From contig JBAZNR010000001.1 in assembly GCA_041649175.1 (NCBI GenBank), positions 322,332 to 386,331 of the forward strand: 64,000 bases of DNA, written 5' to 3'. Positions 1 through 63,700 of this stretch are shown in pieces (position 1 is the stretch's first letter; the number at the start of each line of letters is the position of its first letter). A model generated the notes under the pieces. The model saw only the letters and a list, made by a program, of their open reading frames with translations, was not told the DNA's origin and searched no databases. This stretch comes from Candidatus Omnitrophota bacterium (GTDB lineage Bacteria; Omnitrophota; Gorgyraeia; Zapsychrales; JBAZNR01). Made by a program: the position numbers and the translations under genes.

Positions 1-3000
1 CAATCTCCCGGTTTTCCTAAAGATTCAGGAAGGCCGTTGATGACAACCTCTGAGAAATTTGTCCCTAAATAATCTTTGCCGGCTTCTCTTAAAACACCAA
101 TTCTTTCCGCGGGAACTTTTTTTGATATTCCCGAAACATAAAGGCTGAAACTATCGCGCAGTCTGGTTTTTTCTAAATCCAAATTAAGTCTTTTAGCGCG
201 CTTGATAACACCTGCCCTGGTTAAATTAAGCCGGTCGGATAATTCCACCACATGCGGCAGGCGCTTTTCTTTTGAGGCGGCTATCTCTCTTTTGATCTTT
301 AAATAAGTATCGATAAGATCCACATCGTCTTCTTTAGTCAGCACAATATTTAATACCTTAGCGCGGTGCTGGGTCCACGTTATGGATTGATTTGTCCTTC
401 TTGCTAATTCGATTTTTGTCGGAGCTCTTTGATAAATTTGAATGAGCTCTTGATAAACAGCCCTTAAAACATCATCAGTGATTTCGGTCGTGAAAAGGCC
501 GCTGGTTACGTTTCTTGACTTATTCGCTGCGGCGTTTTCTGCGTTTACTGTTCCCCAGAAAAATGATCCAAACAATAAACCGCCCGCAAAAGCATTCAAA
601 TCAGTTTGATTGCTTTCTTTTTTTGGTTCAGATAAAAGCCCTTTTTTGCGCCCAGAGCTCGGACGTAATTCTGCCGCAACCCATGATCTCTTAGGCTGGA
701 GCATTTGATATCTTTGATAAACAATTTCCGCCGCTCTTGTCGCGTACCTAAACCAGAAATGATTGGCAACAGAATTGGTGTGTGCTAAAGAAGCTCCGAT
801 GTCAGGATGAGTCAACATTGATACTTTTCGTTTAAGTCTTTTAATATAATCTTCTTCCATCTCATGTAGCTCATCCGGGTTAATACCAAAAACACGGCAC
901 GCGATTTTATAATTATTCGGCTGATCCCCCAGGTTCCCAGGGGCTTGGTTGTAAAGATCAGGTTTCTCTCTCCTTAGAGCAGCAAGGCTACCGGCTTTCT
1001 TTAAGGCATCATTGATCAAGCCACAGATAGATGTTTTGACAAGCCTTTGAGCATTTTCAGTATTTTGATGCCTTTGCGTCTTTTGTTCGTAATATTTAAT
1101 TGATTTACTTAACTGCGAAAAGAGATACTGATTTTTCTGAATATGTTCACGGACTGCCCCCTGATGGCTAAGCTTAAGCATTTTACCGGCTTTTGCTTGA
1201 TTACCGTTATTCAACCGTAAGGCCGCGTAAATAACCATAGATTTGAATATCTTTACGGGAGGATAGAATGGAAAATCGAAAATCGCAGCATCTCCGGCTA
1301 TCGATTGTCTGTCAATTCCGTGCTTTCTTTTTAGAGCATCTCGATAGCTCTGATCTCCGCCCAGAATAATATCCGCTTCTTTATCTCTCCACGTTCGTTT
1401 CAGTACGGTAAGAATATACAAATACTCGATTTCTTCCCAAGAAGAACCCGCGCGCATAGCTTCTTGTAGTGTTGTAATCATAGTGGATATTTTAGCAGCA
1501 GGCTTTTTAAGAAGCATATATGTGGTCATGGTGCGGGCAAAAACGCTTTTTATCTCCTGCAATGATCTCTCTAATTTAGAAAATTCCATTTTTCCGTCAT
1601 TTATAAATTCATAAACTGTTTCTTTGTTTATGCCGAGTATCTGAGTAGATTTTTCTTTATTGTTCTTTGACAAAAGCAAAGCCGTATAAACAGAGAATAG
1701 TTTTAAAGTATGGACTGTCGGGAAGAAAGGCAAGTCAAGGTTAATAAGGCCTGACGGAACAGATTGATGAGTAAGCTGATACTTCCTCATGCTTTTTGCT
1801 AACGTATCCTGTTCTTGCATCCCTAACACAGCTCTAGCGTTTCCTTCATGCCATTTGTAAAATTGCAGAACATGGTAAATATATGACCGTTCGATCTCTG
1901 CCCATTTATGCTGGGCCAACAGGTCTTCCAAACGCTTCACCAAAGCTCTTCTTTGCTGGATAGAAATATTATCAAAATCAGATATTGCTTGAGAAACTTC
2001 TGTTGGGCTGTTTTCCACACTTCCCCATAAAATCGGCAAGATGGACGGAATAATAAAGGCATTAAGCGTTTTTTGCTTAGATAGGGACGGAATATTTTCT
2101 CTTACCGGTAAAGGCCAGCCGTGCTTTTCAAATTCGGCAATAATTTCAGCGCGGCGATTGTAATAAACGACCTTAAACGTCGAATTGATCATGCGGGCAA
2201 GTTCTTCCCAGGAAATCGGTTGCCAATCTTTTCGCGGAGTAGATTCGTAATAAGCATCCACTTCTCTCACCAATTGCTCCATCGAGAAAAATTGAAAAAC
2301 AATTTTTAATCCGTCATTGAGTTTTCCGCGCAGCGACGCGCTACCTGGGCTCATCGCTAATTGCTCAGCCAGGCGAATATTATTCCTATCCTTATCGATG
2401 ATATCTACTTTAAGATTTTTTAACCTTTGTACTTGCGTTAAATGATCCTGCAATTGAGCGAGTAAGCGATTTTTTATTTCTCTTACCTTGCCCTCTCGAA
2501 GGCTTAACACAATACCAACTTCGTCATAGCTCCACTCTTTACCGTTTTTGGTCCCTATTCCGTAAAGCAAGAAAAGGATGAGCCGCGACCGAGGATCTTT
2601 TAAAGAAAAAATAACACGCAAGAAAAGATCATTTTGCTGATCAACAATAAGCCATCTCTTTTCCGCGGCCACAGCGGCAATTTCGTTGAAATGTCGTTGA
2701 AGATCAGAAGCTTTAAATCCGGAATATTTTGAGAGAACTTCTAATGTCAAAGGAACACGCTGATCAGCGGGGATTTCTAGCAAGGCCTGTTCAACCCTTT
2801 GCGCAAAGGCTTCCCTTTCAAATTGAGGAACCGGGATAACCTTAACTTTAGGTTTCGGCGGATTATCTTCTTTTTTAGGTTCCCGTTTTACATTTGTGTT
2901 TTCTTCCTTGGGCCTCTTTACGGTAACGATTGCCAAAGGTTGGCGATTTTCTTTTCTGGGATTTTTTCTACCACGAGCCGCGCGCGAAGGCTTTACGATC

Positions 3001-6000
3001 TCTGCCTCTTTTTTCGAGATTAAATTTTGTAAAGCAGCTTTAAACTCGCCTTGCAGCCTCTTCGTCTGGGCCGCTTCCATTTTAGGATCATAATCTAAGG
3101 CTTCTTTAAGCGCCTCAGCCGCGCGGATAGTTTTTTCCAAATTGGCCCAGGAATGTTCTTTGATCTTTCCATCAACAATAAATTTCTTAAATTTTACCCC
3201 GAGTTCTTTTGTCTTCTTTCCAACGATCTGCCGGACGCGTTCTTTGGTCAATTCAAAAATACCGGCGATATCCTCCAAATACCAATGTTCTTTGGGATTT
3301 TCGGCAATGATCCGATAAAAGAGAACTAAAATCAAAGCATCTCTTTGATTGTTCATATCTGCTAAAAGCCACAAGATTTCTTCTCTTTGAGATGAGACAT
3401 CTAACTCCCATTCCACGTTAGGAACGGTATTCTGCTCAATTTGCAAGCCTTCGTGAGCTTCAACACTCTTCCGTCCTTCCACTGGATCCCCGAGGCGAAC
3501 AAAGGTAATGCGCGGTCTGCTTTCTTTTTGACCTCCATTGTTCCTCTGCTCTTTACTTTGTTTAGGAATTCTTATCGTACGGCTATACTTGGCCTTAAGC
3601 AAGTCATGGACTCTGTGCCGTATCCAATTAATGGTATAGGTCATTAATTGTATCCCGCGCTCTTGATCAAATCGGCCGGGCCTTAAAGCAAAGAAGACGC
3701 CTTCCCTGGCAATAGCCAGAAGTTCTTTATCAAGAAAAGCATGATTTAAATATTTCCCAAATTCTTGAAAAATCAATCCCGTATTGGACTCCACAAAATA
3801 ATTGATAATCTTTGACCTTAAATATTCAAATTGTTCCTGCAAAGACGCATCAAAACTGACCAGCCGATAAGCTTTCACTAATATAAGCTCTTCTTCCGGT
3901 GTAAGATTGTGGACGGGCTTACCTAAAATTGTCTTGGCCGCATTGATCGCCGTCATTTCCGCAGATTCCTGATCAGTATTATCGGTGGAAACTACTCCGA
4001 ATAGGGACATCGGAATAAAACAATTTACTGAACTGCCCTGGGACGACTCACTTTCAGGTTCCAAAAACTGCTTATCATCTCTGACAACTTTGTCTTGCAC
4101 AATGCGATAGTTCACTGTTCTTGCAGTCGCTCCGGTAAGATTTTCTCCTCTTTGCGGAAACGCCCTTCTTAAAGAAGGAGAAGAAAATTGAGCAAAGTTC
4201 CAGACGATGGCGCTGATGTTCAAATGATCTGTCTTTATAATGACTTTTTTGCCGCTTTTGTCCTTAAATCCGTCAACGGTAATCTCATAGGGGCCGACAC
4301 GAATTAACTTAGTAACATATTGCCCCGTTTTCCCGTCAAAGAAAATAACTTCATCACGTTCCCATTCAGAGTCCCGCCGGGAAATACCTAAACGGCGCTC
4401 AATATAAAATGGAGTTTTATAATACCAGCTCACTCGGGTAGAGCCGACGGTGGTCCCGCCTCCCTTGTTAAATGTCACTTCTCTGGGGCGAAGGATATTC
4501 CGGTCAAAATTCTGAAATGCCTTGACGCTAAAGGGGCGTAAGTAACCGTTTGTGATTGGAATAACTACGTTTGAATTATCCTTCCCGTCGCCCAGAAGAT
4601 AAAACACATTACCTTTTTTCTCAAAAACAACATAATTAACAGGATTATTCCGCTCAACAACAGCCAAGTAGCGCGACTGAGCCCTTTCTCTGTAAAAAAT
4701 AACCGGAAATGGATCACGGGAATAAAATCTAATAAATCGAATTCTCAGATTTCCGAACAAAATTTCGTTATGGTCTTTTGGCAACGTAAAAGGTTTATTT
4801 TGGCTTAAATATTTCATCACGGCTTGTTTGCGCGGCAGCTGATAAACATTTTCTAAAACCCGGTCGGCAAATTCCGCTGCCGCGCCGTTATAATAAAGAT
4901 CAACCGAAGTAGCTTTGTCTCTGAACTGGATTTCTTCCTTAATGGACGGATAATTTTTATAGGCCGGAACCCAAGCAAATATTCGGCCTTCTTTTCTCCT
5001 CAAAATAAGGACATTGTCTCGGTCGGTTAAGTCAACCAACTTCACCTCAACACCAACAATGCGTTCAACTCTCACCACGCCGGAGAGCTCCTGCGGAAGC
5101 AAAATAACAAGATCCCCTCCCATTTTTATTCTTGGTTTTGACAATACGTAAGTTAATTTCTTTTCTCCCGCGCTGACTAATCCGAACAGAACCGGAACGC
5201 CCAATATAAAACATCCTAAAGATTGCGTCTGATTTTCCGATCGGCTGATACCCGCTACTTGTTGCGGTATTTCATCTTCCCATGCAGGCGTAAAGGCAAA
5301 ATAGATAAGTTCCGTCGAATGGCCCAAATGATATTTCTGAATAAAATCTTTAACACGGTTATACCGGTCTCGAGAATCTTCGGCGAGAAACTCTTGATTG
5401 GTCCTCGGGAAAATGTGGTGCAACTCTTTTCTTTGAGCTCTGTTAAGATCCTTTCGCAGCATAGCCTCAACGATCAAATGCGCCCACAAATACGGCTTAT
5501 GCTCTAAAACAAGGTTGGTGTAAAACAGCTCTCTTAAGATCTGTTTACGGGCGTGTAAATTTTCTTCTGAGAAAGATTTTCGGCTCAGATGTGATTTAAA
5601 AGCGGTCCAGTGATATACAGCCCGCAAATAGACCATATCTAAACGATTCGTGACCCTCATCCATTGACGCTGTCCAAAAGGTGTGCGAGCCCACCGGTAT
5701 AATTTTTGATAAAGGTATGTTTCTTCGATCTCTGTCACAAGATTATGGGGTCTTCCGGATAAGACATCAGAACCAAGCGGGATAACGATTTGCTCGATAT
5801 TTTGATCCTGAAGAAAATAATCCAATCTAGAACGCGGCGCTACGGCATACCCTCTGGCCGCTTGGATAGATTTGAACAACTCCGCCTTGCGTTGTCCACG
5901 GTTTCCTCCGATGCGATTAAATAAATTCCAACGTTCGGCTAAAAACTTAACCGTTTGCCAACGGGATAATTCATGCAAAATGATGATGCGGTCAACTTCC

Positions 6001-9000
6001 ACAAAATTTTGCTGCGGCAAGATATCTGTGGCCTGTTTTTGCCCGTTGTGATCGGTATAATAAAATGCTTGATACTCCTCAGGAACATATTCTAGCGGCA
6101 TCATACCGGCAAAAATAGAATCGCCTAAGATCATGACCTGGATCTCCGAAGTTCCTACCAAAGACCAGCGTCCGGTTTGAAGCATCTGGTAAGTTACGCG
6201 CGATTCTAAAATCGGGTCACGGCTAATTAAGAGAACAACTTCTTTTTCTTTGGATACATTATTTTGGATAACATCACAATTCCACCGGGAACGTTCAATA
6301 AAGGGAAGTAAATTTTCGGCAATGAGGAATATATTTTTTCCTTGTTCTTCCTCGGCTAATTCCGATCCGGAGAAAACAATATTAAATTTCCTCAAGAATT
6401 TAACCACATCCGGCAAGGGATCGCTCAAGCTCACGGTAATTTTCTGCGCGTCGTCCGAAGAAAGCTTTCCGTAAGCCGCCAAATTCACCAAACGAACAAT
6501 GAGATTCTTTAACTTTCTAGAGATCGGTGAACGCAAATAATAACCGATGGTTCTCCACGCTGTTAGACGCTTATGTATTTCTTCTTCAGCCTTTTGGGCG
6601 TCTTTCTCCAGGCTATGCGCGACAAGAACAAGCCAATTTCTTAAACGCTGTGACAAGGTATCCAGGTATTCATCTTCTTCGACGAGCTGCCTCGAAAAGA
6701 TCGTTTGAGGATCATTTTTATCTTTCTGAAATAAACGCACGCCGTTTTCACCCGCCATCAAAAGACTTTCAGAAATCCCAAAATACCCTCTTTGCGGAAT
6801 ACTGTTTTGAACGGGGTGAGATGTAACGATCATATTGACTTCCCGCCCGGTCCTTCCAATAAAATGGATCTTGTCAATAAATCCCTCACGAGATTGAATG
6901 TCAGAGCGGATATCACCCATCAAAGGCGAATAAGCGTCAAACAAGGCTTTTAAAACAGGGGCTTTTAATGATTCGATGCGTCTTAGATCCCGTTCCATCA
7001 TATCCAAAGCGGTCACGCCGGAAAATCCCGCGTAATTAGCTTCCAAGACCGGGCCGCCATGAATAACTAAAATGCCCTGACGCCCGTAATGATAGATATA
7101 ATAATGTTCTTTCATCCAGGCAAACATTTCCTGCATCAAGGGATCTTGCCGGAAATTTTCCATAGTCAAAGGCTCTTGGCCTTCTTGAAGCAAGGTTTGA
7201 TTATATTCTTCAAAAATAAATTTCCCACCGCCCATCGCAAACCAAACTTTCGTTAGCTGCTCGTGATCCATCATGGCCGCGATAAATTCAACTTCATTCG
7301 AACCATAAAGAAGAATAAGGGGAAGTCCGTCGACTTCTTTGTAATGGCGCAAAATTTGATAAATACGTAAATTTTCTTTTCCCTTGCCGAATATGTCCCC
7401 CGTTAAAACGATCTTGGTGGCGCCTTGCGCGAGCGCTTCCGCCATTAAAAGCTCTAAAAGTTCACCGTCGCCTTCAATATCGCCGATAAAAGCAGTACGG
7501 GGAACCTTGGAAGGTTTTCCACTTTTGTATTTCTCGATCTCACGGATAAGTTTTAATTTATTGCGGGCAAAGATCAGTTTCTTTATTTGAACCGCCAACT
7601 CCTCAATGCCGATGACCACCTGGGAACCGGAACGAGGGTCTTCATAAAAAAGCCCTTTAGCGGATTTAATGAGTTCCAACAGCGGCGGTAAAACAATAAG
7701 AAGCCCGTCTCTGGTATAAATTTCCCGGACACTTTTTGTAATATAATAATGATTTGCTTTTAGTTTTTTCTTCAACTCCCGAGCAATATCAATAAGTGTG
7801 CGCAAATGGTCGTGGGAAAATATTTTCTTATGCTTATCCATGTACACAGCCATTTGTTCCAATGTCTCATCCGAAAAGATAAGAAGCTTGGCCAATTTAG
7901 TCAAAAGGCCGAATATCTTAACCACATTTTTAGCCAACATGCGGTCTTGGCCGATGATTTCCCTGCTGTAGGCTAAAACCATTTCTTCAAAGATCAATTC
8001 CCAAACCTGTTCGGCGATCTCAACGGGCGGATGCGTTTTAGGGTCAGCTAAAGCCTCATGAAGAAGAACCACGCCGTCTTGCGGCGACTTATAAGCTAAG
8101 TGCTTAAGATCAGGGCTGAATTTGAAAATAGCTCCGTGAGCCATCTCATCTTTCAGCCGTTCTCTGATGACTGAAAATTCTTTTTCGTTTTGCCCTAAAA
8201 TTTCCGTAAGAAATTCTATGTAAACTTCTCCGTCGGCAATGATGTTGTCTCCTTGAAGCGTCAGGCTTCCGGGATGGCGGGCAAAGAAGTATCCGTTGAC
8301 CGTCCCAAAAATAAACGGAACGGAAAAGATCGGTAAGGCGGCAAATGAATTAAGCGTTTGATTTGATCTATGTTGCGGCTCTAAACGCACAACTCCGGGC
8401 TCATGAATAGATTGCACGCGCCGGCTGATGATCGTTTTATGTTTTAATCCGGCCTTTGTGAATAACGGTTCCCAAATAAATAATCGGTCCAAATAAATAG
8501 CAAAGATCCCATAGCCTTGAGATGAAAAATGTTTTGGCAATTGCTTTAAAATAGCCTGCATTTTTCTCTTAGAAATAAAATCGTTGTGGTTATTTGTCTT
8601 TCCATCGACCGGTTCCGGCGCATGCCAAATGATCACATCGTAAATACCCAGCCCACGCAAACTATTGTGTTTGAACACGCGAACGTTGTTTGTCAAGCCG
8701 TTATGCACAAGATTATGCCCCGTCAGCAAAATACTTTCTTCGGCAATATCGATCGCGTCTACCTGCTTGGCCCCGGCTAATATAGCGGCGATGACATCAA
8801 TGCCGTTTCCGGGCCCGATCACAAGAACTTTGCTTTCAGGCTTTAAAGTGCCCGGGATCTCTAGCGCGCGCACCATGCGCAGAGACTCAAAATGACGAAT
8901 ATCATCGGCAAAAACGATCGTCTGATAGATTCCGGGATAATTAAATACGGTTAGCTCACGGCCGAACATAGGGACAACGGAAGGCGATAAAAGGCTTGGA

Positions 9001-12000
9001 TTTAGATCTTGTGCGGATCCTGTCGAAGACTTGCGGAAAATCAAAACCGCCATGCCGGCTTTAGCTATCCCCCACCAGCCACGGAAAGGTAAGACAGCTA
9101 AATAAAGCGCCGACATGACGGAAATTTTGTCGTCTGAGACGTCGTTAATTTTATTGTAACTCGGTGCCCGTGATTGAAAAGATGTTTCTAAGATTTCTTG
9201 GCGGCCTATCTTCACTATGAAAATAACTAAAAGGGTTGCCAAAGACATTAAGACGCCATAGAGAACAAATCCATTAAGAGAATTTAAATTTTCTAATTTT
9301 TTATGCCGTCGGTAAAGATCGACCAAATGTTCGGTCGCTTTGGCCTGGCCGACAACGAACGGTAACGCCGTTTTTTCCGGAGAGAAATCGTTCCAAGAAA
9401 GCGGAAAAAGGAACGCTCCATCCATCCGATAAACGCGCAAACCCGCCGTCCGCAATAACACCGCGGATGGAACAACATCGTGAACGCCGCCGGTCATTGA
9501 CGTAAACGCGGCATGCCGCCGTTCTCTGCTGAAAATAAGGCGCGTTGCCGTATAAATAAAAGACGACTGCTGTTTAGAGATCACAAAATATCTACTGCTC
9601 TCTAAAACACCACGCAGCGGATGCGGCTCGCCGCTCCAATCGGCAATAATAACTTTATGATCAGCGGAATCTTCCGGGGAAAATTTAATCGGACGGTTGT
9701 TGACAGAAACTTCCCGAGTTAACGCATTGGATTCGAATGTCTCATTTAGATCCGGAGCAATGATCATAGAAATCAGCGGCCAGCCTTTATAAAGGACGCT
9801 TAACGCGAAAACATATTCGTTTGTGTCCTTTTGGGCATAAGCCCGCGTTCCGTCAATGGGGTCGATCACCCAAATAAAATTCGTGTGGCCGAAGTTAGCA
9901 CTATTTTGCCGGATCAAGGGCTCTGGGAGGCCGATCTCTTTTAGATCTTCCTCGGCATGAATATAATGCGTCGGGTATTTTGTAGATATGAACTCAAATG
10001 CCATTTTTTGCGCTAAATGATCTGACGATGTAACCAAAGATCCGTCCGGCTTTCTTTTGACAACCGCCTGATCACGATTCATTTTGATCGTATCAGCGAT
10101 ATGATTTGACATGTTTCTGGCAAAGCGCACTATATCACCGACAAAATCTTCGTCTAATTCTTGGGCCACCGCCGTCACGTTTAATTTCTCTAATTCCGGG
10201 CGATATAATCTGTTGACCCGATTATGGAAAATCGTCTGGATACGAAGCGGAATAAGCGAATTCGGATGAGACACAAACCATTCGGTCGATTGAACATAAG
10301 ATTTGGCGGCCGCCATTGTGTATTTATAACGCGGTGTGGAGATATTATGCAGTCTGTCGGCGGCTTTAATGATCTGCAGATATTTCATTAGTAAATGGTT
10401 TGTAACATCAAAGGCAAGCAGGCGGCCTAAAAATGTTTCATCTTCTTCTAACGAATATTTCTTGCTCAACAGAAGAATACATTGAATGATCAGCTCAACC
10501 GCTGCTGCGTCATCAGTTAATTTTAGTAATTTTCCTCTTAACTCTTCGATCAACTCCGTCCGGGATAACGGACCCTTGTAATCTTCCAAAACATCGTGCA
10601 ATAGCGCGACCGCCGAAATAATTTCAAACCAGAATTTCGGCATATGGTCAAATTCAATTTCTTCGTAAATTCTAAAACTAAAAACCAAAGTTTTAAGCGT
10701 GCTTAATAAATGCAAAATATACGGTTCCCCGTTAGAACGGATCTGACCGGCATGATATTCTCGCGCTATGCGAAATACGCCGTCTAAGAAGCGCTCATCA
10801 AACCATGGCCGGAAAGATTTGATCTTGCGCAAGATCCTTTTAAACTGATTTTCAATGAATTTCTCCGTATATTCGGCCGCGATTTTCTTATAAAGATAAA
10901 CACGGCCAAAGATCGGCTTGCCAAGATACTGGCTTTCAGTGCTATCCTTGGAAACGAATGCACGGACGGAATAGGGGATCACCAGCCAATAAGAATCAAA
11001 GAATTTTTCCGCCGTCATCAAGATCAAACCGCCGTGGCGCGCATTATTAACGATATTGCCGGCCATGATATTGACCGCCCAGGGCTGGTCTTCTTGGGCA
11101 TTTAGCTCTAATTTATATTCGACAAAGTTATAAGTAATAAGATCAAATTTTTCGTCTTCTGAGTTCACTCGGTAGTCGATAATATTGTCGAGGTAAACAA
11201 TTTCGATTTTCTCCTCGATCTCCGGCTTTAACCTAAAGCGGCCTGTCGCAGTTTTATTAAAAGAAATGCTAATACGCCGCTCTAGATCTTCACTTAAAAC
11301 TTCATTGGGCTTAAGAAACCAATGCAGGCCGTAATCTTGCTGCAGCAACACATTCTGTTGGCTCTTAGAAGCCGTCACAATGATCTTGAAATCCCGAAGC
11401 CCGGCTTCCCACATCAAAGCGGCAAAGCGCTGGGCTTTAAAATTGTGCCAGCCGTCTTCATATTGCGATATCCCTCCGACAACATTAGCGCGCATCGTTC
11501 TCCCGGAATCTTTCTTCTGTGTTTTAAAAAGCTCCGGAATGATGACGCGGGTCAAATGCTGATAGATCCCGCCTTTTTCATCAAAAAAGTAAGGATGATT
11601 AATGGATCTTTTTTGGGCAAGATAGGCTTGGAATTTCGTACTGCGCCAGATCATGGCTAAGATAAATCCCAAAGCGCTTAATCCTAAGAAGAATTCTGCA
11701 AAGATAAACAATTCTTCACGGTGATCAGAAGGAGTGGCATCATGAGCAGGAATCGCCCATCCTCTTTCCGAAAAAAGCGATTTGATCCTATCTCGATGAT
11801 CGGAAGTAAGCCGCCTAACATGAAGAATTTCTCTAATTTCTTTCCATGTCAACTGATTACGACGCCCAATAGACATTGCGTCAACTCGCTGGGCTAAGAA
11901 ATCCATTTCCCTTTTTAAGAACATTTCTTTTTCTTTTGCCAACTGCGCTAATCTTTCCGGGCTAAAGACCGGCGTTGGCCAGCCATAATCACGAAATAAC

Positions 12001-54700: not shown

Positions 54701-57700
54701 CATCTTCTACCTGGCCAGCCAAAGTAGACAGTTGCGCTTTCCAGTTCGAGTAAAATACTTTTTCTCTCTTAACCCCATACACATGAATAATAGACAGCGG
54801 TTTACCGCCATTTATTTCTTCTAATTTTTCTTTAAGCGGGCCGAGCCATTCCATATTTAAAAAACCAATCGGCAAAGAAACAAATAAGGCATAAAGTTTC
54901 CGCTGCGAAGACTGTTCAAATTGATCAGGATTAGCGGCTTTAACCATTCCAATAAAATGTTCCCTGCCAAGATCTCGTGACCGCAAGAAAGAAAGATCAA
55001 TGCGATTGTGGCTTATTCCGTTAAGTCCGTACAAGCGCAACAAGGCGTTGGCAATATTCATATATATCGAATTGTTAACTTGCCTAAATAACCAGCTTGA
55101 GTAAAGGTTTGTAACGACGTCAACGGCGATCACTTCAACCGCGGCTTCCAAATTTTGACTTTCCGGTGCAATATTCATTAGTTTTCGTAAGCCAGCTAAA
55201 ACACGTCCTAATTGTTGCTCGATGACCTCATGCTCCTGGATAAATTCTCCGGCAACATCTCTCATGTCGGCTTCGTTGTAATGCTTAACTCGGTAAACGG
55301 TATTGCCGTCTTCGCCTAAGATCATGGTCGTATTAAGTTTAAGCATAAGCTCGACGATGTCTTTTAAGCTTTTGAGTTCAATATTGCGTAAGAATTCTAC
55401 GAAGATCCGGCGAACCGCAAAATTATTTTTCAGGTAATTTTTTTGATTTTCCGTTTTTGGAAAAGGATGTTCCTCTGGGTATCTGACCATCTCAACCCAA
55501 GGAGATACCAGGCTATAAGTCCAATTTAATTGGGCGACAAAACCGAAAACTCCAGAAATACCAAATCCCGGGACAAAGGCATTGATTGGGCTCGCTCCTT
55601 GAACATCTTCCCCGTTTTCATCGAAGGCGATCCGAATTAATCTTGCTTCTGTGTCTATAAAAACAACATCATTTCTATAACGGATACTGCCATTGACCTT
55701 TGCGTACAGCCGTTCGGCTTCTTGATCATGATGATTATGGCGCGCGATAGCCGCCAAGATCTCAATTTCGCTTCTGTGGCGTTCGTTAAACTTCTCATCA
55801 TCAGAATTTCCAAAGCGCTTCAAATATTCGGATAAAAATTCTAAGATATTCTTCGCGCGAGTCGTTCCGACAACTTCCGCCATACCGCTTAATAACCAGC
55901 CGACATAATCATATATATTGCTGTACGGCTGTTCATCATCTTCCAAGGAAACCGAACTATAATCCAAAAGCACAATAAGAAATTCGAGTTTTTCTGTTTC
56001 CTGCAAATTAAACATGATGCTGGGATCTAAAACTAAACGATTAAAGTTAAAGTCCATCCAAACCTTATCGGTTGTTGGCATATTCGCTAAATAATAACCG
56101 TCAAACTCTCCTGATAACATGGCTAATCTCATCCAAGCCTCGGCGTAATGAACGATCATCATCTTAATATTGAGAGGATTACGATGGGTAAATTGCGCCG
56201 GATATTGATACAACATTTGTAAATTGGAAAATCCGTTGCGGCTTTCATGCAGATAAATTCCGGTATTGTTTTCTAATGTAAAAGCACCTGGCTTAAGGAA
56301 AAATCGATAACCTAAACGATGCTCTTCATTGACCGCTTCAATGGTTTCAAAAAGGCGAGAAATATCCTCGGCTGGCATGGCAAGTTGCTGCTTGGAAATC
56401 GCATAAATACCTAAATGATAAACCTTCATTCTGTTCTGGTAAGGCAATTTGGCCGTTAACGATAAGGGGAGCTTTCCTTCTTCTCGGGCAACGCGCTCCA
56501 TACGAGCAAGTGATTCACTGCCTTCGGTAGCCGACTGCACGGTGATAACAGCGCCTTCGGGGATTTGTCCGTCAGATAAGATCTCTTTAATGAAATGATC
56601 ATCACTAAAAACATTGAGAAGCGCTCGGGCTAAAAAGTTTGTTTCGCCTAATTGGCTGGATAAAGCGCGGCGCACGCGGTTACGGATAGGCGCGGGGATA
56701 AAATTGTTAGGATCAATAAATTGAAGGCCTCTAAAATCAAATGTGGATTCTTGCGAGAAAACGGTTCCCCATATTCCAAAAAATAAAAACATAAGAGGCG
56801 CAAACGAATGAAGTTTTTGAGTTTTTTCTCTGTATCCGACGGCACCAGTATTGTCTAAAGCGCTTTCAAATAATAATCCGTATTTTTGGATCATAACCGC
56901 AATGTCAACTTTTTGATGCGCGCCGATAAAAGCTTGTTTCATTCCATCGATCCATAACGTTGACCGGCCTGCATGGTATTGACGATATGAAGTTATTGCT
57001 TCTGTTAAATGTTGGGCTAATTGCAACATACCTTGTTCTTCGAAGGTGCGAATGATATTTCCGTCCCCGGATTCAAAGCGGCGGACAACATCTTCAAAAT
57101 TCCATCCCTTGAACACATCTAAAAACCATCCTGTTTGACCGTGAATAATATATTCAAGCGGCCCGCCGGTAGCTGTTGCGATATTGTAATGGCCATTAAA
57201 AGCCGCACGCTGGTCGCTGGTGCCGCAGGCTTCTCTGGTGGGGCGCGGCATACTGACCCAAACATCACTGGCGGCAATAGCCTTTTGCATAAAATCAATG
57301 CCGCTTTCGGAAACGAAAACAAATTTACCCTTTAGTGCGGGATCTTCCATCATGGACCTGAATTGCCAAACCCAATGACGCCCGATATCATCCAAGCCGC
57401 GCCCGCCGATAAGAACATTAGCCCCTAATCCCGGTTTTTCTCCCCACGGCGTTTGATACATTTGATCGGGCTCCCCGGTGATCCATTTGATCAGAGGAAT
57501 GATGATGCCTTGTTCTTTGTAAGCCACTAAACGGCGCACCAAACCGACCAAAGGACGGCTTGTGTCGTTAAAGGTGAATTCTGCGCCAAAATTTTCACTC
57601 ATAAAATCATTAAGGACGCTCTTTTGTCTTTGACCGATCTCAAAGAGTTTTTGTCCGGAAATATTTTCTAAAGAATCCAGCTCTTTAACATATTCTCTTA

Positions 57701-60700
57701 AATCGCCGGAATACCAAAGGGTGGGGTCTGAGCCGTTAACGATCCCGACGATCTTTTCTTTAAATTCTGGGAGGACAACGATCTTTGTGATTTCGGCGTG
57801 TTCTTCGGCAACGCCGTTGATGACATTGGCCATGCGCGCCAAACCAATAGCCGCGTGGGCAACATAACCATCGGCAACAACTTCTCTGGCTCCATCCCAA
57901 TCGCGGATCAGATCCGGCCCTAATAAGGTTTTAAGCCACTGGGCCGGCCAAGAAGGAAGCGCCGCGCGTTCGGGAGTGTGAGTAGTCATTACAATTTTTG
58001 TTTTATCAAAAATACTTTTCTGGTTTTGGCTATTGAACCAGTCAATATCATTTTTCATAGCGGTCGCCACAAAAACCAATTGTGGTTCATTGAGCCGCGC
58101 GACATTGGGGTGGATCTCTAATTGCTTCATTAATTCCACATAGGCGCGGGCAAAAAAGCCGAATTGGCGCGTCTGGCGTTCATCGCCGGGATACAGGCGG
58201 TTGAAGATAGAATCTTCGCCTAAATGGCGGATCAAGAATATCGGAATACCATTACGATTGATCCAATAAACCTGTACGGTATTATGCGGATGATGATTGA
58301 AATCAACACTAAAGGTAAGCGGCACGAGTTGATTGCGGTTATCTAAGATCACCACCGGTTTGATGCCGGATTCATTTTGCCAATTGATCTGGACACGGCT
58401 TCCCTGCGCGTCGTAATAACCTTCGTAAAGCGGCATCACGCCGATAGCGGAGAATTTTTTCAAGAGATGATATGCACCCCAGGTTTCGCCGGTTAAAAAT
58501 CCAAGCCCGCCGGCGGCTAGGGCTTTTTGAGCCAGGCCTTTTAATTCCGGTAAGAAGGCTTCCAGGGAAACATCGGTCACGATCGGTTTGCCGGATGTTC
58601 TGATGCTATTTAACATCGGCCCCAGCGTGTCATCGGCGATAACAAAACCAAATATTCCAAATCCAAAAAAGCTTGGAGTAAAACTGAAAAGTCCCGTTCT
58701 TTCGCCTGTGGATAACTCATTAGGGACGTTTCTGTTCTGTATCTCAGAACTGTCCCTTTGAGCTATAGCCTGTGAATTCGGGGACAGTTCTGAGCGCTGC
58801 GGCAGAAACGTCCCTAAATCTAAAATAGACCGTATTAATGATTTGCCCGTAATGCGTTTAATGGCCGGCCCGTCTGTTTTTATGGAACAGCCCAGTAATT
58901 CTGATAAATGGAAGAATGTTTGAATACCAATTAATATTTTGAGAGAAACTGAATTAACAAAGAATATCGTGATGCCGCCGGCAACAAAAAGGAAGTGAGT
59001 GGCCAGCGGCGCAAATAACACAATGAGGCGTTGAGAATCAGTCGCACGTTCGCTTCTGTGGTGCCGCACATTATATCGGCTCATCAACCATGCCGGAATG
59101 ATGTGCATCAAGGCATGAATAACGGGAACGCTAAACGTAGTAGCGGCAACAACGGCGCTCATCATGGTGATGCGCGATAAATCCAACGCTATTCCAATGT
59201 TATCTTCGATTTTTAACGCGATGAAAGAAGCAAAAATAGAGTAAACGAAGTATAGTAAAGACCCAAAGCCGATATCTTGTTTCTGCCAGTAATGATCACT
59301 GATAAATCCATTTTTGTTAAGCCCTAAGAGCTGACTTTTAATATATTTGAATATGTTTTGGATTCCCAAGCCAAAAACAATCGGGCCAAAAGCGAAAAGC
59401 TTTGAAGTGCGTCCGACTTCTGCCGTAACTTTCTCAACTAGATTTTTTTGCTCAACGGAGACAACGCCGAAACGCTCGGAAGAGTTCGGGATCCAGCCAT
59501 GAGAAAAATCAGTTGTCACGACAACCGTTGGAGTTTTGACTAAGTAAGCGGCGTGAACAATAGCTGTATCGATGGTCACCACTTGGTTAACTTGGCGTAA
59601 AAGCTCAATAGTGGCCGCGCGGCTTTCCCAGTCGGTGTTGACTTGGCGGCTGATATCCCAAAGCTTTACGTTAGGGTGTTGCGAAAATCCTTCGATCAAA
59701 TATCTTAAACGCGCCGAAACCACATTTTCAATATTGGTATTAACGATCACCGTGAAGCCTTTTTGCAAAAGCTGTTCAATGATCCCGGCCCAATTTTGCC
59801 TGGATGAATCTTCGGATGATGTACTAGCTAAGAAGTTAACGAAAATAACCGGCGATGTAGAGGAAATACTGTTTCCGGTAAAGAAATCCCGAACGATTTT
59901 CTGAGTTTGAGAGAAGCTCGGCAGAATATCTGTTTCGCTGGGAAGCTCAAATCCATATTCTAATAAAGCGGCGCGAATACCCACATGAGCATCTAATCTG
60001 CCCCATGTTTGACCGCTTAAAATATTGATCACATTACCGCCGTAAATATCAATGCCATGCATATTGATAACCATGTCGTACAACGGGAAGATCACGTCAC
60101 GTAATGTCGATATCTGATAAAGGCTAGGCATATCAAGCTGGGCAAAACGAGCTGTCTTGTGATCGTTTAATTCTCGATAGGGATCCTCCATGCCGTTTAA
60201 ACTCAAGGCAAAGATGCTCAAATTCTCTAAATTCGGGAAATTATGCGAAAGTGTTTTTGCGATGATCGGTAAGTAAGCCAACATCTTTCCCCATGTTCCG
60301 GTCCCGGCATAAATGAAGACTCTTTTTACTTTTGAGAAATCTAAGCTTCGCACTTCTTCTGCTCTCGGCGTTAAATCTCCGTTATTGAATAATGATTGGG
60401 ATCTGGAATCTCCCTGCGTCGCTACAAAGCCAAAAACCGCCACAGGAACAAACGCGAAGCTGTGAAGAGCGCTGACACTAGAATTTGAAATAAAGGCTGC
60501 TGCCGGGTGATTCCCCAATCCAGCCACGGAAAGATTGGAATCATTTTTATTCGCCGGCAGCAGCCCAATATTTTTATTCGCTAAACGCCATACGCTATAC
60601 GCTGAGCCTTTAACTCTGTCCCCTATTTTTACAAACCAATCTCTAAGCAAAGAAACGATTCCGGAAATTCCTAACCCCAGCACAAACGCGGCGAGGTTTT

Positions 60701-63700
60701 GGCCGGAGTTTTGATCGGAACCCTTAGAGCTCTTGGGATCAAATTTGACCATAGGAACAATTTGTATCTGCGCTTCCATACCTTCGGATTCAACCAGTCG
60801 ACCTTGATCATTAACAAACAATCCTGCCTCTTTCGCAAACATTAACCCGGCACCAAAATCATCACCGTTTTGAAGAAGAGCGCGCACCGTATCAATATGT
60901 TCTTGCGTGGTCAGCGTATTCGGATCGATCTTCTCTTCTTTTAAGTAATTAATCACCCAATCGCCTAATTTTTCTATGATCAAAGCACGGATTTGAACGT
61001 CGGTGAGCTCGCGGATCTTTTGAGTTTCTTGGGTCTTTTGGGTTGATTGGGTCTCTTGAGTTCTTTGGGTCTTCGTCATATCCCAAAGACTACGTAGCCT
61101 AATATAAGCAAAGAATGCTCCCAGGCCAATCAGCGTTGAAGCAAAGATCGTGACAAGCAAAGTAAGAAGAACGGTTCCGACAACAATATCCAAAGCCAAT
61201 TTAGATACGAATTTGATCGTTTTGACGGCAAAGTTTTTAACACCCTTCCAACCGAACTTGCGGTAAACAATAGCACTCACGACAATCGTTGCCATTATTT
61301 TCGCGACGGCCAGACTAAAAATGATCGGATGGGACGCAACAAAACTTTCCACAAATCCTTTAAGATTTAAGAATAATCCGGCTAACATAGCGATCGTCGC
61401 CGCAACAATTGTTGTCGGGTCAAAAAATCCTCGATCACTTCTAGAATGATAATGTTTCATGCGATAACTAAGCGTCACACTCGGCAACATAGCCGTCGCG
61501 AGAGTTAAAATCGCAACGCCCGCGCCCACGTAAAGCACGATGGGTGAACTTTCGATAACGTAAAATCCGAACGTAAATATCGTCGCCACAAACCCGATCA
61601 TAAATGTCTTGGCGGCAAACTTGTGATTGTGATGACGGCGTTTCCAGGCAGATTTTAAATTTGATTTAGCAATGATCATCGCTATCGTCAGCGCGAGAGA
61701 AGCCGCGATCACAATCTTCATTCCTAAAAGAACATTATCTTCATTGCTCAACAAACCGTTTAAGGAAGATGTTAATCCGCCAAAAATTCCCAGAACCGGC
61801 ATAAACGTGAACGCGTTGAGAGCAATTTTTTTGGTGAGTTCACGTTCTAAAGCGGCGATGACCGTATTGATCATGGCGTTGGCTTCTTCTATTTCTTCAC
61901 GGGTCGTAAGTCTGCCTACCGCGTGGAATTCGGCAGAATCATATTTATTTTCAAAAGTTTCAAAGGCGGCGATCGTTTTAGAGTCGTTGATAAGTTTTTT
62001 CATGACGATCAGGCCAATTTTTCCAAAAACCAGAGACCACCAGCCGCGCTGAGCCTTATAGTTAACGCCATCGGTGCTATGAACAACACTATTGGGAAGC
62101 TCATCACGGTAATCGCTTTTCAGTTTTTTCAAATCAACAATGGCTTTTTCAATGGAAGATTGCCGCTCCTGAGCCAAGATACGCCCAAGGGATTTTTGTA
62201 ATGTTTTAATGTCTTTTTCGATAGCGTCATGAAGAGGAAATGTCGTTATGCCGTTTGACCTTACGGGAATACTTAAAGCTCTCCGGGCTGATTTTTGTAA
62301 TTGCTCAATGGATCGTTCGATATCTTCCCGGCCGGCTTTCGCGGCAATGACTTTGACGACTGTTTCACGTAAACTTACATCATCTAAAATTTGAATAATA
62401 TATACGATAGCCTGATGAGTGCCAAATTCACCTAAAGCTTCAATGGTATCAAGCTTAAACTTTTGTTCTTTTTCTTTTCTTAATAATTGCTTTCCTAAGA
62501 TCTCAATAGCTTTTTCGCCTAAAATCACTTGAACCGCTTTAGCCTCGCCGTGGCGCCTTAAGAAACGCACTTGCCAAGGCGTTGGAGTTTTTATTCCATA
62601 GGATTTGAGAATAATGCGTGCCAAAACTTTTTCATTTTTGATCTCTTTATAATTAATAACCCAGGCCAAAGCCACCACGGCTAACGAAAGCGCGAGTGTT
62701 TTAAAGCCGTCTGAACTTAAAATTCCGTTAAGATCCATCATCGCCAAAACGGGCATGAATGTAAACGCATTAAGAGAAACCCGCCCGCCGTTGGCACGCA
62801 AATCGGCCACTTCTTTCATTAGCGCTTCGTGGAATTCCGCAACCAATTTATGATCTGAGGTAGAATACAATCGTGATGTTGCGGCGATCACTTGCCTTAT
62901 CGTCGTATAGCGAGAAATAGTTACGAAGATATTGTGAACTTCCTGGGCTACTTCGCCGGGGCGAAGTTCACGAGCGTGTTGGCCAAGAATGCCTTTGGTT
63001 AAAATATAGTCCAGGTCAATATTCAGGATAATGCCTTCGGTAAAATTAGGCGCATTGCCGCGCATGACCGCTTCTAAGTCGCTGGAAACGGCCGACCAAT
63101 GGTCCATATCTTCGGAAAGGACTATGCGGCCGTGCTTGGGATAAATCCAATACACATTGCCGACCAAATTAAATCTGAGTAAGAATCCTATCCAATTGCC
63201 GCAGTCGATCTCTACGGCGCGGCTATTGGTTAAAATCCCGATAATATGCGTATCATCGCTATGATAATCAAGAAGGACATGCGGTAAATGATTGGAGATC
63301 ACGCCTTGACGGATAGCCTGCTTGATGACAGAAAACGTTCCGCCGTGATCATCAAAAATATCGAACGGGATACGAGAGGCAGTTGCAGGCTGATTCCCCA
63401 ATCCAGCCACGGAAAGATTGGAACCATTTTTAGATGCCTGCAACTGCCCAATTCGATTATTTTTTAAATTAGTTTTTCCATTTTTATTCGCGGCATTACG
63501 CGCGAGGACGATCAAGATCCCTAATGCAAAACCAAAAGCGGCCGGAATAAAGATAAAAGCTTCCTCTTGCCCTTGTTTGCCGAAATCCTTATGAACATCT
63601 TCCACAAACACCACTGTATACATCCAAGAGTTGCCGGGGCCAAAATCGCGGGAAAGACGCACCAACCCTTGTTGTTCTAATCTTTCTAAAGTTTTCTGCA

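Follow-up and report, generated by a model that had tools for sequence, protein, structure and literature searches.

A recurrent Phe/Gly/Pro-rich peptide at the module boundaries of a giant Omnitrophota open reading frame, and its possible role as a non-spanning membrane pin

We analyzed a 64,000-nucleotide stretch of the Candidatus Omnitrophota contig JBAZNR010000001.1 (hereafter the window), which is read over its whole length as one open reading frame (ORF), and found that the enzymes and regulators encoded in this frame are parted by a short hydrophobic peptide, hereafter the junction motif. The motif is conserved in amino acid sequence, lies at module boundaries, is specific to its lineage and is membrane-seeking in composition. 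Among several explanations we favour, at a probability of about 0.4, one in which the junctions act as non-spanning, re-entrant membrane pins.

Minus-strand frame 2 contains no stop over 21,332 codons and is open at both ends, and each of the five remaining frames has 943-1,643 stops; the whole window thus falls within a single ORF running past both of its ends. Amino acid (aa) i of this ORF corresponds to plus-strand positions 64001-3i down to 63999-3i. Pfam matches along the ORF describe a string of unrelated, mostly complete enzymes and regulators. They comprise GNAT, GT9, a GT5/alpha-glucan-phosphorylase-like enzyme (hereafter GT5-like), HD domains, a Ser/Thr kinase, LOG and HATPase_c; several S-adenosylmethionine (SAM) methyltransferases, iPGM, asparaginase, AceK, phosphoribosyl pyrophosphate (PRPP) synthetase and an inositol-monophosphatase-family domain; and, in addition, a type IX secretion system (T9SS)-type C-terminal sorting domain, HPr, TPR arrays, a PrmA-like methyltransferase and sigma-70 region 4. 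Lysine_decarbox and the starch-synthase family PF08323 also belong to this repertoire. Sequence searches against PDB chains confirmed full-length iPGM (E 7e-170) and AceK (E 4e-100), together with PRPP synthetase and LOG. The ORF and the three modules most used below are as follows.

3..63998 (-): continuous ORF; stop count and Pfam domains over the full length
31545..33320 (-), aa 10227-10818: AceK module, complete isocitrate dehydrogenase kinase/phosphatase; Pfam E 8e-93 / 9e-86, homologue alignment, AlphaFold2
37401..39074 (-), aa 8309-8866: iPGM module, complete cofactor-independent phosphoglycerate mutase; Pfam, PDB 3nvl_A E 7e-170
56814..58637 (-), aa 1788-2395: GT5-like module, whose homologues serve as the taxonomic anchor; Pfam, homologue and PDB searches

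The junction motif takes the form L-[NS]-[ASGC]-F, followed by 8-14 hydrophobic residues rich in Phe, Gly and Pro and closed by [FW]-G-x-V. A hand-anchored census returned 30 strict copies, 2 copies without the N-terminal L-x-x-F and about 14 looser variants, i.e. 46 junction-like segments, spaced at a median of 397 aa. All nine instances decoded in a preliminary description of this DNA (marked below as previously reported) were recovered at their positions on the minus strand, and its count of at least 45 copies is reached if the variants are included, though not by the strict form. A profile hidden Markov model (HMM), built from the clear copies and iterated once, matched 32 copies above 5 bits with a top score of 29.5 bits; on 20 versions of the protein with shuffled residues it scored -2.2 at best, i.e. 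never above 5 bits. The strict copies, the two partial copies and the variants are listed in that order, with the evidence for each.

62718..62774 (-), aa 409-427: junction LNAFTFMPVLAMMDLNGIL, atypical C-terminal end, then a transmembrane (TM) segment at aa 431-450; HMM, hand anchoring
61773..61820 (-), aa 727-742: junction LNAFTFMPVLGIFGGL; HMM, hand anchoring
60423..60467 (-), aa 1178-1192: junction LHSFAFVPVAVFGFV; HMM, 21.4 bits
56760..56813 (-), aa 2396-2413: junction LHSFAPLMFLFFGIWGTV, beginning where the stand-alone homologue P0123 ends (residue 845/859); HMM, alignment, previously reported
55536..55586 (-), aa 2805-2821: junction INAFVPGFGISGVFGFV; HMM
53817..53867 (-), aa 3378-3394: junction LSSFIFSPFGLSVFGIV; HMM
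47739..47789 (-), aa 5404-5420: junction LSAFAGFGFVPVIIGLV, DNA family D1; HMM, DNA repeat
46869..46919 (-), aa 5694-5710: junction LPAFVGFGFVPVLFGSV, DNA family D1; HMM, DNA repeat
46179..46241 (-), aa 5920-5940: junction LSAFAGFGFAPFVLPVLFGEV, DNA family D1; HMM, DNA repeat
44541..44591 (-), aa 6470-6486: junction LNSFIALLPFGILGLVN; HMM
39918..39974 (-), aa 8009-8027: junction LNSFLLPFVFAPISALGVV, HATPase_c/methyltransferase boundary; HMM, Pfam neighbours
39075..39131 (-), aa 8290-8308: junction LQGFVVPFIFAPLAFIGSV, methyltransferase/iPGM boundary; HMM, Pfam and PDB neighbours
37353..37400 (-), aa 8867-8882: junction LNAFLLPSFFAFFGFV, 7 aa past the iPGM end; HMM, PDB alignment
35442..35492 (-), aa 9503-9519: junction LNSFAGLFVPFAFWGTV, top score of 29.5 bits, asparaginase 12 aa downstream; HMM, Pfam
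33321..33371 (-), aa 10210-10226: junction LNGFAGLLMPFGFWATV, its T-V aligned to residues 3-4 of stand-alone AceK; HMM, alignment, AlphaFold2
31491..31544 (-), aa 10819-10836: junction LNAFTFGFILPFALFGLV, 6 aa past the last AceK-aligned residue; HMM, alignment, AlphaFold2, previously reported
27432..27476 (-), aa 12175-12189: junction LSAFFGFGLSAFGFV, 13 aa past PRPP synthetase, DNA family D1; HMM, PDB search
26460..26504 (-), aa 12499-12513: junction LNSFVSSSFLFLGTV; HMM
25953..25997 (-), aa 12668-12682: junction LNGFVAFTPVVFGIV; HMM
22884..22943 (-), aa 13686-13705: junction LAAFAPMFAFGALAGIWGVV; HMM
22152..22205 (-), aa 13932-13949: junction VHGFAPSFIFIPTIFGVV, HPr domain 5 aa downstream; HMM, Pfam
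20376..20423 (-), aa 14526-14541: junction LNAFIGGLIPLAFGLV; HMM, previously reported
17514..17561 (-), aa 15480-15495: junction LYGFLGFGAFGLFGVV; HMM
16563..16613 (-), aa 15796-15812: junction LAAFIPNIFSLGLWATV; HMM
13398..13457 (-), aa 16848-16867: junction LNAVIGPLGFSMLFAVFGTV; HMM
8298..8354 (-), aa 18549-18567: junction LNSFAALPIFSVPFIFGTV; HMM
5175..5219 (-), aa 19594-19608: junction LGCFILGVPVLFGLV; HMM
3990..4028 (-), aa 19991-20003: junction VNCFIPMSLFGVV; HMM
2016..2066 (-), aa 20645-20661: junction LNAFIIPSILPILWGSV, sigma-70 region 4/HTH-like boundary; HMM, Pfam, previously reported
546..599 (-), aa 21134-21151: junction LNAFAGGLLFGSFFWGTV; HMM, previously reported
45351..45398 (-), aa 6201-6216: partial junction CACFVPLFLFGTVASG, C-terminal half only; HMM
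42099..42152 (-), aa 7283-7300: partial junction ANSFILPFAPMIFGLVRS; HMM, 16.8 bits
58638..58691 (-), aa 1770-1787: variant LFSFTPSFFGFGIFGFVI, immediately ahead of the GT5-like module; HMM, alignment
59346..59396 (-), aa 1535-1551: variant LFAFGPIVFGLGIQNIF, previously reported as 59345-59400; hand anchoring
50169..50219 (-), aa 4594-4610: variant LHSMIFPVFGLVALGMV, 3 aa past the T9SS-type C-terminal sorting domain; Pfam, previously reported
48279..48338 (-), aa 5221-5240: variant SVHAFAGFGVSSLLVAATPN; HMM
23619..23657 (-), aa 13448-13460: weak variant SLSAFAPGMYLDM, N-terminal half only; HMM
29688..29828 (-), aa 11391-11437: LNAV-type start fused to a long TM segment, previously reported as 29763-29850; DNA repeat D4
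29064..29147 (-), aa 11618-11645: LNAV-type variant, duplicate of the aa 11391-11437 copy, previously reported as 29082-29160; DNA repeat
54090..54167 (-), aa 3278-3303: LNAI start and long TM segment; hydrophobicity scan
9201..9278 (-), aa 18241-18266: LNGF start and long TM segment, then K/R; hydrophobicity scan
63489..63560 (-), aa 147-170: long TM segment beginning AFIFIP, at the upper end of the previously reported range; hydrophobicity scan
60642..60695 (-), aa 1102-1119: LAAF variant; hand anchoring
51438..51506 (-), aa 4165-4187: loose variant LLSITPFIFVPIVGLAVFAGLYY, L-x-x-x start running into a long TM segment; hydrophobicity scan
49359..49433 (-), aa 4856-4880: loose variant FVFLVPLHLLVFIPGIGIAVFGWIY, running into a long TM segment; hydrophobicity scan
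11643..11711 (-), aa 17430-17452: loose variant LFIFAEFFLGLSALGFILAMIWR, running into a long TM segment, then R/K; hydrophobicity scan

Positional conservation is evident at both ends of the motif in an alignment of 29 strict copies, from which one atypical copy was left out. At the N-terminal end, L1 is found in 26/29 copies, N2 in 16/29, F4 in 28/29 and a small residue at position 3 in every copy (Ala in 14, Ser in 8, Gly in 5 and Cys in 2). F4 is followed by a hydrophobic residue and Gly or Pro, then by a variable stretch. At the C-terminal end, Pro occupies position -4 or -5 from the Gly in 16/29 copies, Phe or Trp precedes the Gly in 24/29, the Gly itself is present in 26/29 (Gly or Ala in 28/29) and Val stands at +2 in 27/29. 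The length from Leu to Val is 13-21 residues, most often 17, and the core between F4 and [FW]-G comprises 8-14 residues.

At the conserved residues, six Leu, four Gly and four Val codons are used, and identical residues share a codon in only 0.40 of cases. Similarity at the DNA level is confined to family D1 (44 nucleotides, 64-84% identity), at the junctions starting at aa 5404, 5694, 5920 and 12175, and to D4, a 74-nucleotide direct repeat (29071-29144 / 29752-29825, 86% identity) encoding LNAVIP(S/T)FGM(V/M)(I/V)GYLAKLIKGLLGVG. The D4 pair is a recent duplication of a junction-like segment, one copy of which runs on into a long TM segment. Since codon use is free and the DNA repeats are restricted to these four junctions and one pair, the conservation resides at the protein level, as had been proposed in the preliminary description; this holds for most copies, though not for the members of D1 and D4. 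Moreover, six positions are kept among copies that mostly lack DNA similarity, which implies purifying selection on the peptide and agrees with the selection claimed previously. The same codon diversity and the narrow reach of the DNA families led us to reject a DNA-level repeat or mobile insertion as the origin of most copies. Internal translation starts were rejected as well, as no conserved ATG, GTG or TTG precedes the cores and no Shine-Dalgarno-to-start spacing is seen (Leu1 is TTG in only 4 copies, and the Val is GTG in 9/30).

No junction copy lies inside a Pfam envelope, i.e. the motif is not internal to known domains. The AceK module aligns with stand-alone AceK over residues 3-578 of 583 (49% identity), in an alignment that opens within the G/A-x-V of one junction and closes 6 residues ahead of the Leu of the next. 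In an AlphaFold2 model based on 40 AceK homologues, the AceK module folds with a predicted template modelling score of 0.81, and both flanking junctions and their linkers fall outside the fold, with a predicted local distance difference test (pLDDT) value below 50. Similarly, the iPGM module corresponds to residues 35-570 of the 571-residue PDB chain 3nvl_A, with the next junction 7 residues on, the GT5-like module reaches residue 845 of 859 of its stand-alone homologue exactly at the start of the next junction, and HPr starts 5 residues past a junction. Single junctions part the successive modules HATPase_c, SAM-methyltransferase, iPGM and SAM-methyltransferase, as well as asparaginase from AceK and sigma-70 region 4 from an HTH-like module. 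Taken together, these results bear out the location at module junctions given in the preliminary description, and, with the positional conservation above, neither of the two grounds for refutation named there (a place inside known domains, or no positional conservation) holds. Because AceK, iPGM and the GT5-like enzyme align end to end with stand-alone homologues, the motif stands where a stop, a spacer and a start would be expected, and the junction cassette thus replaces the stop codon, intergenic spacer and start codon of an operon.

The closest homologues of the GT5-like module (43-58% identity) come nearly all from metagenome-assembled genomes of Candidatus Omnitrophota, 11 of them from inside giant ORFs, and at 17 loci such relatives lie within ORFs between 2,500 and more than 7,000 aa long, most of the largest of which exceed the fetched DNA at both ends. 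The nearest relatives of the AceK module (49% identity) are ordinary 580-aa proteins from mixed phyla, and the window contains no marker genes. Giant ORFs of Omnitrophota have been described as the 'Archaeovorin' type (West-Roberts et al. 2023, bioRxiv 10.1101/2023.11.21.568195) and under the class name 'multi-enzyme metabolic cluster' (bioRxiv 10.64898/2026.06.07.730766). The window resembles them in being a stop-free ORF of at least 64 kb (class criterion, more than 20 kb), in its Pfam repertoire (methyltransferases, HATPase_c, GNAT, HD, PF08323, Lysine_decarbox and TPR), in its many predicted hydrophobic helices and in its nearest GT5-like homologues, found in Omnitrophota genomes and several of them inside giant ORFs. 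On these sequence features, the window probably belongs to a giant 'multi-enzyme' gene of the Omnitrophota type.

The motif itself is lineage-specific. In contrast to the 17 related giant ORFs, the hydrophobic segments of the window share one motif, placed exactly at boundaries about once per 400 aa; in the relatives the GT5-like module is flanked by polar linkers and hydrophobic segments occur about once per 1,000 aa. Over 103 fetched loci including these 17 ORFs (about 90,000 aa) the junction HMM reached only 4.4 bits at best, and the motif was absent from 242 fetched homologous proteins. A 1,004-aa motif-rich stretch had no homologue among 5.8 billion proteins, and patterns from the AceK module had no match in GTDB genomes or JGI metagenomes. 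Searching 1.84 billion representative proteins with the junction profile, where a protein with many copies would have accumulated a large score, gave matches to P0121 and P0122 alone, both translated simple repeats. These 'proteins' of about 230 aa consist of tandem SLHCFTPFRFIAIWG units and are almost certainly translated DNA repeats, not relatives. No related giant ORF is collinear with the window in its modules, i.e. module order is not conserved, and the motif is not described in either of the two preprints cited above.

We next turn to the physical nature of the segment. The flanks are polar linkers (72% and 68% S/T/N/Q/E/D/K/R/G/P, compared to a background of 53%), and the cores contain 24% Phe, 15% Gly, 14% Val and 7.5% Pro, with GFGF and GLFG strings, compared to 11% Phe, 7% Gly and 3% Pro in the other hydrophobic segments of the protein. 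The uncharged stretch is 16 residues long in the median and contains about 2.4 Gly and 1.1 Pro. The hydrophobicity scales differ in their verdict. The Wimley-White interface energy over 14 residues was -4.75 kcal/mol for the cores and -4.18 for true TM segments, the first percentile of the protein lying at -4.34. The Kyte-Doolittle 19-residue criterion was passed by 15/30 cores compared to 29/29 other hydrophobic segments, and a Hessa-type translocon sum averaged +5.2 kcal/mol for the cores, positive in 30/30, compared to +0.7 for the other segments (p = 2e-9). Association with a membrane is well supported by these values, whereas spanning of a membrane is not. The single Gly/Pro-containing TM helix of the preliminary description accordingly stands as regards Gly, Pro and the membrane-seeking character, while spanning is questionable given the short uncharged stretch, the translocon sum and the Kyte-Doolittle result. 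Net charge is -0.1 over the 8 residues upstream, which are net positive in only 9/30 copies, and -0.7 downstream, where K/R is below background; there is no net asymmetry, and charge asymmetry does not differ significantly between junctions and true TM segments (p = 0.08).

The order of modules bears directly on topology. If the junctions spanned the membrane in an intact chain, half of the modules that they part would be extracellular and cut off from ATP, SAM, glycolytic intermediates and DNA, an argument resting on the established biochemistry of the flanking enzyme families. This adds to the doubt about a single TM helix, as modules that need ATP, SAM or DNA and are parted by one copy each cannot take turns on the two sides of a membrane in an intact chain. 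Three ways out of this conflict are possible: non-spanning junctions, cleavage of the chain, or action of the modules in another cell.

According to the explanation that we favour, the spacer between consecutive complete enzymes would have turned, in this lineage, into a conserved cassette consisting of a polar linker, L-[NS]-[small]-F, a short Phe/Gly/Pro-rich core with a V/L/I-Pro kink, [FW]-G-x-V and a second polar linker. Each cassette would enter the cytoplasmic membrane but not traverse it, forming a shallow helix-break-helix of re-entrant or interfacial type, with an Asn/Ser cap at the N-end, a Gly cap at the C-end and aromatic residues at the lipid interface. Every module boundary would thereby be held at the membrane's inner face, and all modules that depend on ATP, SAM, PRPP or DNA would remain cytoplasmic, like enzymes stitched along the membrane; given the cofactor needs of the flanking modules, both ends of a cassette would lie on the same face. 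The Leu-Asn/Ser start and Gly-x-Val end may resemble a hydrophobic-staple N-cap and a Schellman-type C-cap, respectively. We rank the pins first because they need no unseen component and fit the composition, the Pro kink, the marginal propensity to span and the same-side requirement; the anchor part of the 'membrane anchors of a polyprotein' suggested earlier is thus the leading, if tentative, reading here.

A helix break at a branched-chain-Pro or Ser-Pro dyad has been reported for the re-entrant helices of monotopic proteins (PMC6133551). Pro is present in 26/30 junction cores, 20 of the 32 prolines directly follow V/L/I, and AlphaFold2 on the 30-copy alignment places a helix, a break one residue before the Pro and a second helix ending at the conserved Gly (pLDDT 65). 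The junctions thus share with the re-entrant helices of PglC and caveolin-1 (eLife 2018, PMC6133551) a hydrophobic segment broken by a Pro dyad and predicted as helix-break-helix. For those helices both flanks are expected to be cytoplasmic and the segment is easily mistaken for a TM helix, and the same would be expected here. Unlike in PglC and caveolin-1, the segment is much shorter, internal and repeated about 46 times rather than present as one N-terminal copy, it lacks a conserved Lys-Arg motif and has its own conserved ends, and there is no sequence homology.

Several observations weigh against the pins. Beside the Pro, the junctions have arms of about 5 and 8 residues, whereas those of PglC-type re-entrant helices are longer, the AlphaFold2 junction model is of low confidence at the pLDDT given, and on the Wimley-White octanol scale over 19 residues the cores (-6.2; 30/30 negative) are TM-competent, with other segments at -8.4. 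K/R is commoner upstream in 17 copies and downstream in 5, which is the polarity of a signal or signal anchor. Generic anchoring does not obviously need six near-invariant positions in about 30 synonymously saturated copies, and this constancy agrees equally well or better with recognition by a shared partner or enzyme. A Por_Secre_tail (T9SS C-terminal sorting) domain (50229-50453 (-), aa 4516-4590, E 7e-9, above the Pfam cut-off), found at the extreme C-terminus in ordinary proteins, stands here in mid-ORF, 3 aa ahead of a junction variant. The protein is depleted of Cys about ten-fold (24 Cys in 21,332 aa, 0.11%). Finally, stand-alone Omnitrophota homologues of the GT5-like module (P0123, P0124, P0125, P0127, P0129 and P0134; 650-1,145 aa) begin with what look like classical signal peptides or N-terminal anchors, which would not be expected of an enzyme of the glycogen-metabolism type. 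The Cys depletion, these signal peptides and the T9SS domain hint at an extracytoplasmic life or at free termini.

The Cys depletion may reflect exposure to an oxidising compartment or export in an unfolded state. A near-invariant Cys of AceK is Tyr in the AceK module of the window. Among related giant ORFs, Cys is absent from the 7,281 aa of L001 (the closest) and the 2,913 aa of L005 and makes up 0.14% in L024 and 0.08% in L031; other Omnitrophota giants have 0.4-1.5%.

The strongest competitor of the pins, though in itself somewhat unlikely, is that the junctions are processing signals of a true bacterial polyprotein, cut by a membrane-associated peptidase encoded outside the window. Cleavage would fall between [A/S/G/C] and F at the N-end of the core or between [FW]-G and x-V at its C-end, and would set free about 50 or more separate proteins, part of which would be exported. 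Small P1/-1 residues are a requirement of signal peptidase I, prepilin peptidases and rhomboids. Such residues are kept through codon drift at position 3 in 29/29 junctions and at the C-terminal Gly/Ala in 28/29, between conserved L, F, [FW] and V; the Pro 4-5 residues ahead of the Gly (16/29) recalls the h/c boundary of signal peptides; and a cut past the conserved Gly would leave essentially native N-termini on AceK and HPr. The K/R bias upstream (17 versus 5 copies) and the acidic downstream flank point the same way, as do the depletion of Cys, the signal peptides of stand-alone GT5-like homologues, which sit at the equivalent place, and features of free termini such as the Por_Secre_tail domain and an internal Tat-plus-lipobox-like signal. 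Published work, moreover, suspects processing of Omnitrophota giant proteins at cleavage points not yet known, and in one Omnitrophota study the lack of known cleavage points blocked structural analysis.

On the other hand, Pfam and PDB sequence searches revealed no peptidase domain of any kind in the 21,332 aa of the window. SecA_DEAD-like and/or C39/S8 peptidase domains have been reported for most full-length Omnitrophota giants; Pfam finds none of them in the 21,332-aa portion seen here of an ORF that extends beyond both window ends. Ten junction peptides compared to Pfam and NCBIfam, including prepilin, PEP-CTERM and other sorting models, gave nothing at E <= 10, i.e. no match to any signal or sorting HMM. 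A Sec-type h-region (about 7-15 residues ending with a helix breaker) is matched by the 8-14-residue core and its Pro, and the conserved Gly could be -1 of an A-x-A rule with an aliphatic residue or Phe at -3, but an A-x-A-like pattern past the core is not enriched (20/30 compared to a 50% background) and the positively charged n-region is lacking. Signals of class III (Gly -1, Phe +1, Glu +5) do not correspond, since Phe is at +1 in 28/29 copies and Glu at +5 in 0/30; nor do the C-terminal sorting signals LPXTG, PEP-CTERM, PGF-CTERM and GlyGly-CTERM, in which a TM helix and then a basic cluster follow the signature motif, given the net -0.7 downstream, the internal position and the negative HMM searches. 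Export of AceK, PRPP synthetase, HPr and sigma-factor modules would be sensible only if they acted in another cell, and related giant ORFs join the same kind of module by plain polar linkers.

Four further cleavage or skipping mechanisms were rejected: 2A-like ribosome skipping (no NPGP), intein or bacterial intein-like elements (no conserved nucleophile), SEA-type autoproteolysis between G and SVVV (the junctions lie outside any fold) and Asn-lyase cleavage (Asn in only 16/29 copies). A lipobox was rejected as well, as Phe occupies 28/29 of the positions where an invariant Cys +1 is required after L-[AS]-[GA], and Cys occurs only twice, at position 3.

The small residue before Phe, at the N-edge of a Gly/Pro-containing hydrophobic stretch, is shared with type IV prepilin and rhomboid substrates. 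Unlike prepilin signals, the junctions have no N_methyl/prepilin match and no Glu +5, have Ala rather than Gly as the commonest -1 residue and are internal; as rhomboid substrates they have the small P1 in 29/29 copies, a hydrophobic P2' and Gly/Pro, but a polar instead of a hydrophobic P4 (before the Leu). The closest working analogy for processing is the flavivirus polyprotein, in which internal signal sequences at the C/prM/E/NS1 junctions are cut by host signal peptidase. Here, too, a single ORF encodes numerous complete proteins, the segments at its junctions are hydrophobic, and small residues occupy the candidate scissile positions; unlike there, the organism is cellular, the window yielded no protease, neither an A-x-A consensus nor a positive n-region is present, and cleavage is putative.

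Extending this further, the cassette could be a dedicated, lineage-specific cut-and-sort signal and the ORF a genuine polyprotein, which a membrane peptidase would cut at the invariant small residues into about 50 or more complete enzymes and regulators, part of them exported; we consider this unlikely. It would agree with the marked loss of Cys and with the secretion-type termini that are still present. The exported set might then include host- or prey-directed effectors, with kinases, AceK, Fic-like, GNAT, methyltransferase, LOG and sigma-factor-like modules as candidates. MARTX toxins carry unrelated enzyme modules as beads on a string, with an autoprocessing cysteine protease, RTX repeats and Leu at the junctions. 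The present ORF is likewise a very large bacterial multi-module protein with a conserved junction Leu, possibly acting in another cell; unlike MARTX, its junctions are hydrophobic rather than unstructured polar linkers, and Pfam found neither a MARTX-type cysteine protease domain nor RTX repeats in the window.

The internal Tat-plus-lipobox-like segment mentioned above, SRRKFLQQFAVIVALAAVSGPLLEGC, followed by SKKNP (25311-25391 (-), aa 12870-12896), is by pattern a twin-arginine signal with a lipobox, uses one of the rare Cys residues and precedes a module with a weak GH127 match; the Pfam model TAT_signal did not match its RRxFL segment.

The literature's default reading, in which the junctions are ordinary single-pass TM helices of an uncleaved chain whose modules alternate between the cytoplasm and the periplasm or cell surface, is quite improbable here. 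Predicted TM helices published for Omnitrophota giants number 42 in the 39,678 aa of V. archaeovorus and up to 331 in 122,534 aa, i.e. about 1 per 370 aa, a density similar to that of the junctions. All 30 cores are negative on the octanol scale, half pass the Kyte-Doolittle criterion, the Cys depletion would fit, and some of the module families are secreted as stand-alone proteins. However, every second ATP-, SAM- or DNA-dependent module would be extracellular; the cores are short, bear Gly and Pro and are translocon-unfavourable in every copy, which makes them poor stop-transfer segments; and charge does not alternate, the mild K/R bias having the same polarity at most copies, which is impossible for consecutive spans. 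West-Roberts et al. themselves noted implausible localisations and disagreement between predictors (bioRxiv 10.1101/2023.11.21.568195).

Still less probable, in our estimate, are cohesive stickers or docking helices, with the cores binding each other or a common groove (of a chaperone, a SecA- or signal recognition particle-like receptor, or a scaffold) and so compacting or targeting the chain. The 24% Phe and 15% Gly, the GFGF/GLFG strings between N/Q/S/T/E-rich spacers and the sequence-specific conservation of both ends, which suggests one shared partner, would agree with it, and SecA-like preprotein-binding domains are frequent in giant Omnitrophota proteins; but sixteen uncharged residues with a strong interfacial free energy would be expected to enter any available membrane, and the idea is speculative, no SecA-like domain lying in the window. 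There is, finally, only a slim chance that the junctions are evolutionary scars, i.e. remnants of N-terminal signal or anchor peptides after gene fusion by stop loss, or a cassette copied with module duplications: identity between neighbouring junctions slightly exceeds that between distant ones (0.46 versus 0.41, permutation p = 0.002), a few recent DNA-level duplicates exist and stand-alone homologues of one module bear signal peptides, but the six positions kept without DNA similarity in most copies argue for purifying selection, and the flanking modules are mostly unrelated, so that module duplication cannot explain most copies.

Some further features of the window and its relatives were recorded. 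The best solved structures for the iPGM module are trypanosomatid enzymes (3nvl, 3igy; E about 1e-170), those of bacteria scoring about 1e-100; the module is therefore of the long type found in eukaryotes, unlike the solved bacterial structures. The giant ORF at locus L030 (+) contains three tandem GT5-like modules (aa 2616-3197, 3334-3943 and 4537-5118), two of which give identical alignment statistics against the module of the window, which suggests a recent internal duplication. Two multi-pass membrane blocks, aa 10861-11154 (30537-31418 (-)) and aa 11408-11506 (29481-29777 (-)), are strongly hydrophobic, unlike the junction cores, and have no Pfam or PDB match. These two blocks and a third at aa 755-966 were rejected as intramembrane proteases, as no GxSG, HExxH or GxGD was seen by eye and there was no Pfam match. 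The third block, of six to seven helices, is directly followed by a Thr/Gln-rich low-complexity repeat, TQRTQETQSTQKTQETQK (aa 975-995, 61014-61076 (-)). A 92-nucleotide direct repeat (60494-60585 and 63377-63468, 80% identity) encodes ...KN(G/D)SNLSVAGLGN(Q/H)PA..., and a TM-like segment (aa 147-170 and aa 1102-1119) precedes each of its copies by about 25-35 aa. Published giant genes often lie near type II secretion system/pilus loci.

Overall, that such giant genes exist and are rich in predicted TM helices is known already; a conserved, lineage-specific cassette that marks every module boundary was found neither in the published descriptions cited above nor in the collections searched. A conserved peptide giving the exact coordinates of about 46 junctions makes the question whether Omnitrophota giants act as one chain or are cut, and where, accessible to specific tests. 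Published TM counts and inside/outside maps of such proteins may be dominated by non-spanning segments, and caution is due in reading them. If cleavage were true, the organism would have a cellular polyprotein system of a size that only viruses are known to reach; if the chain were uncleaved, the junctions would represent a new way to tether dozens of soluble enzymes to a membrane.

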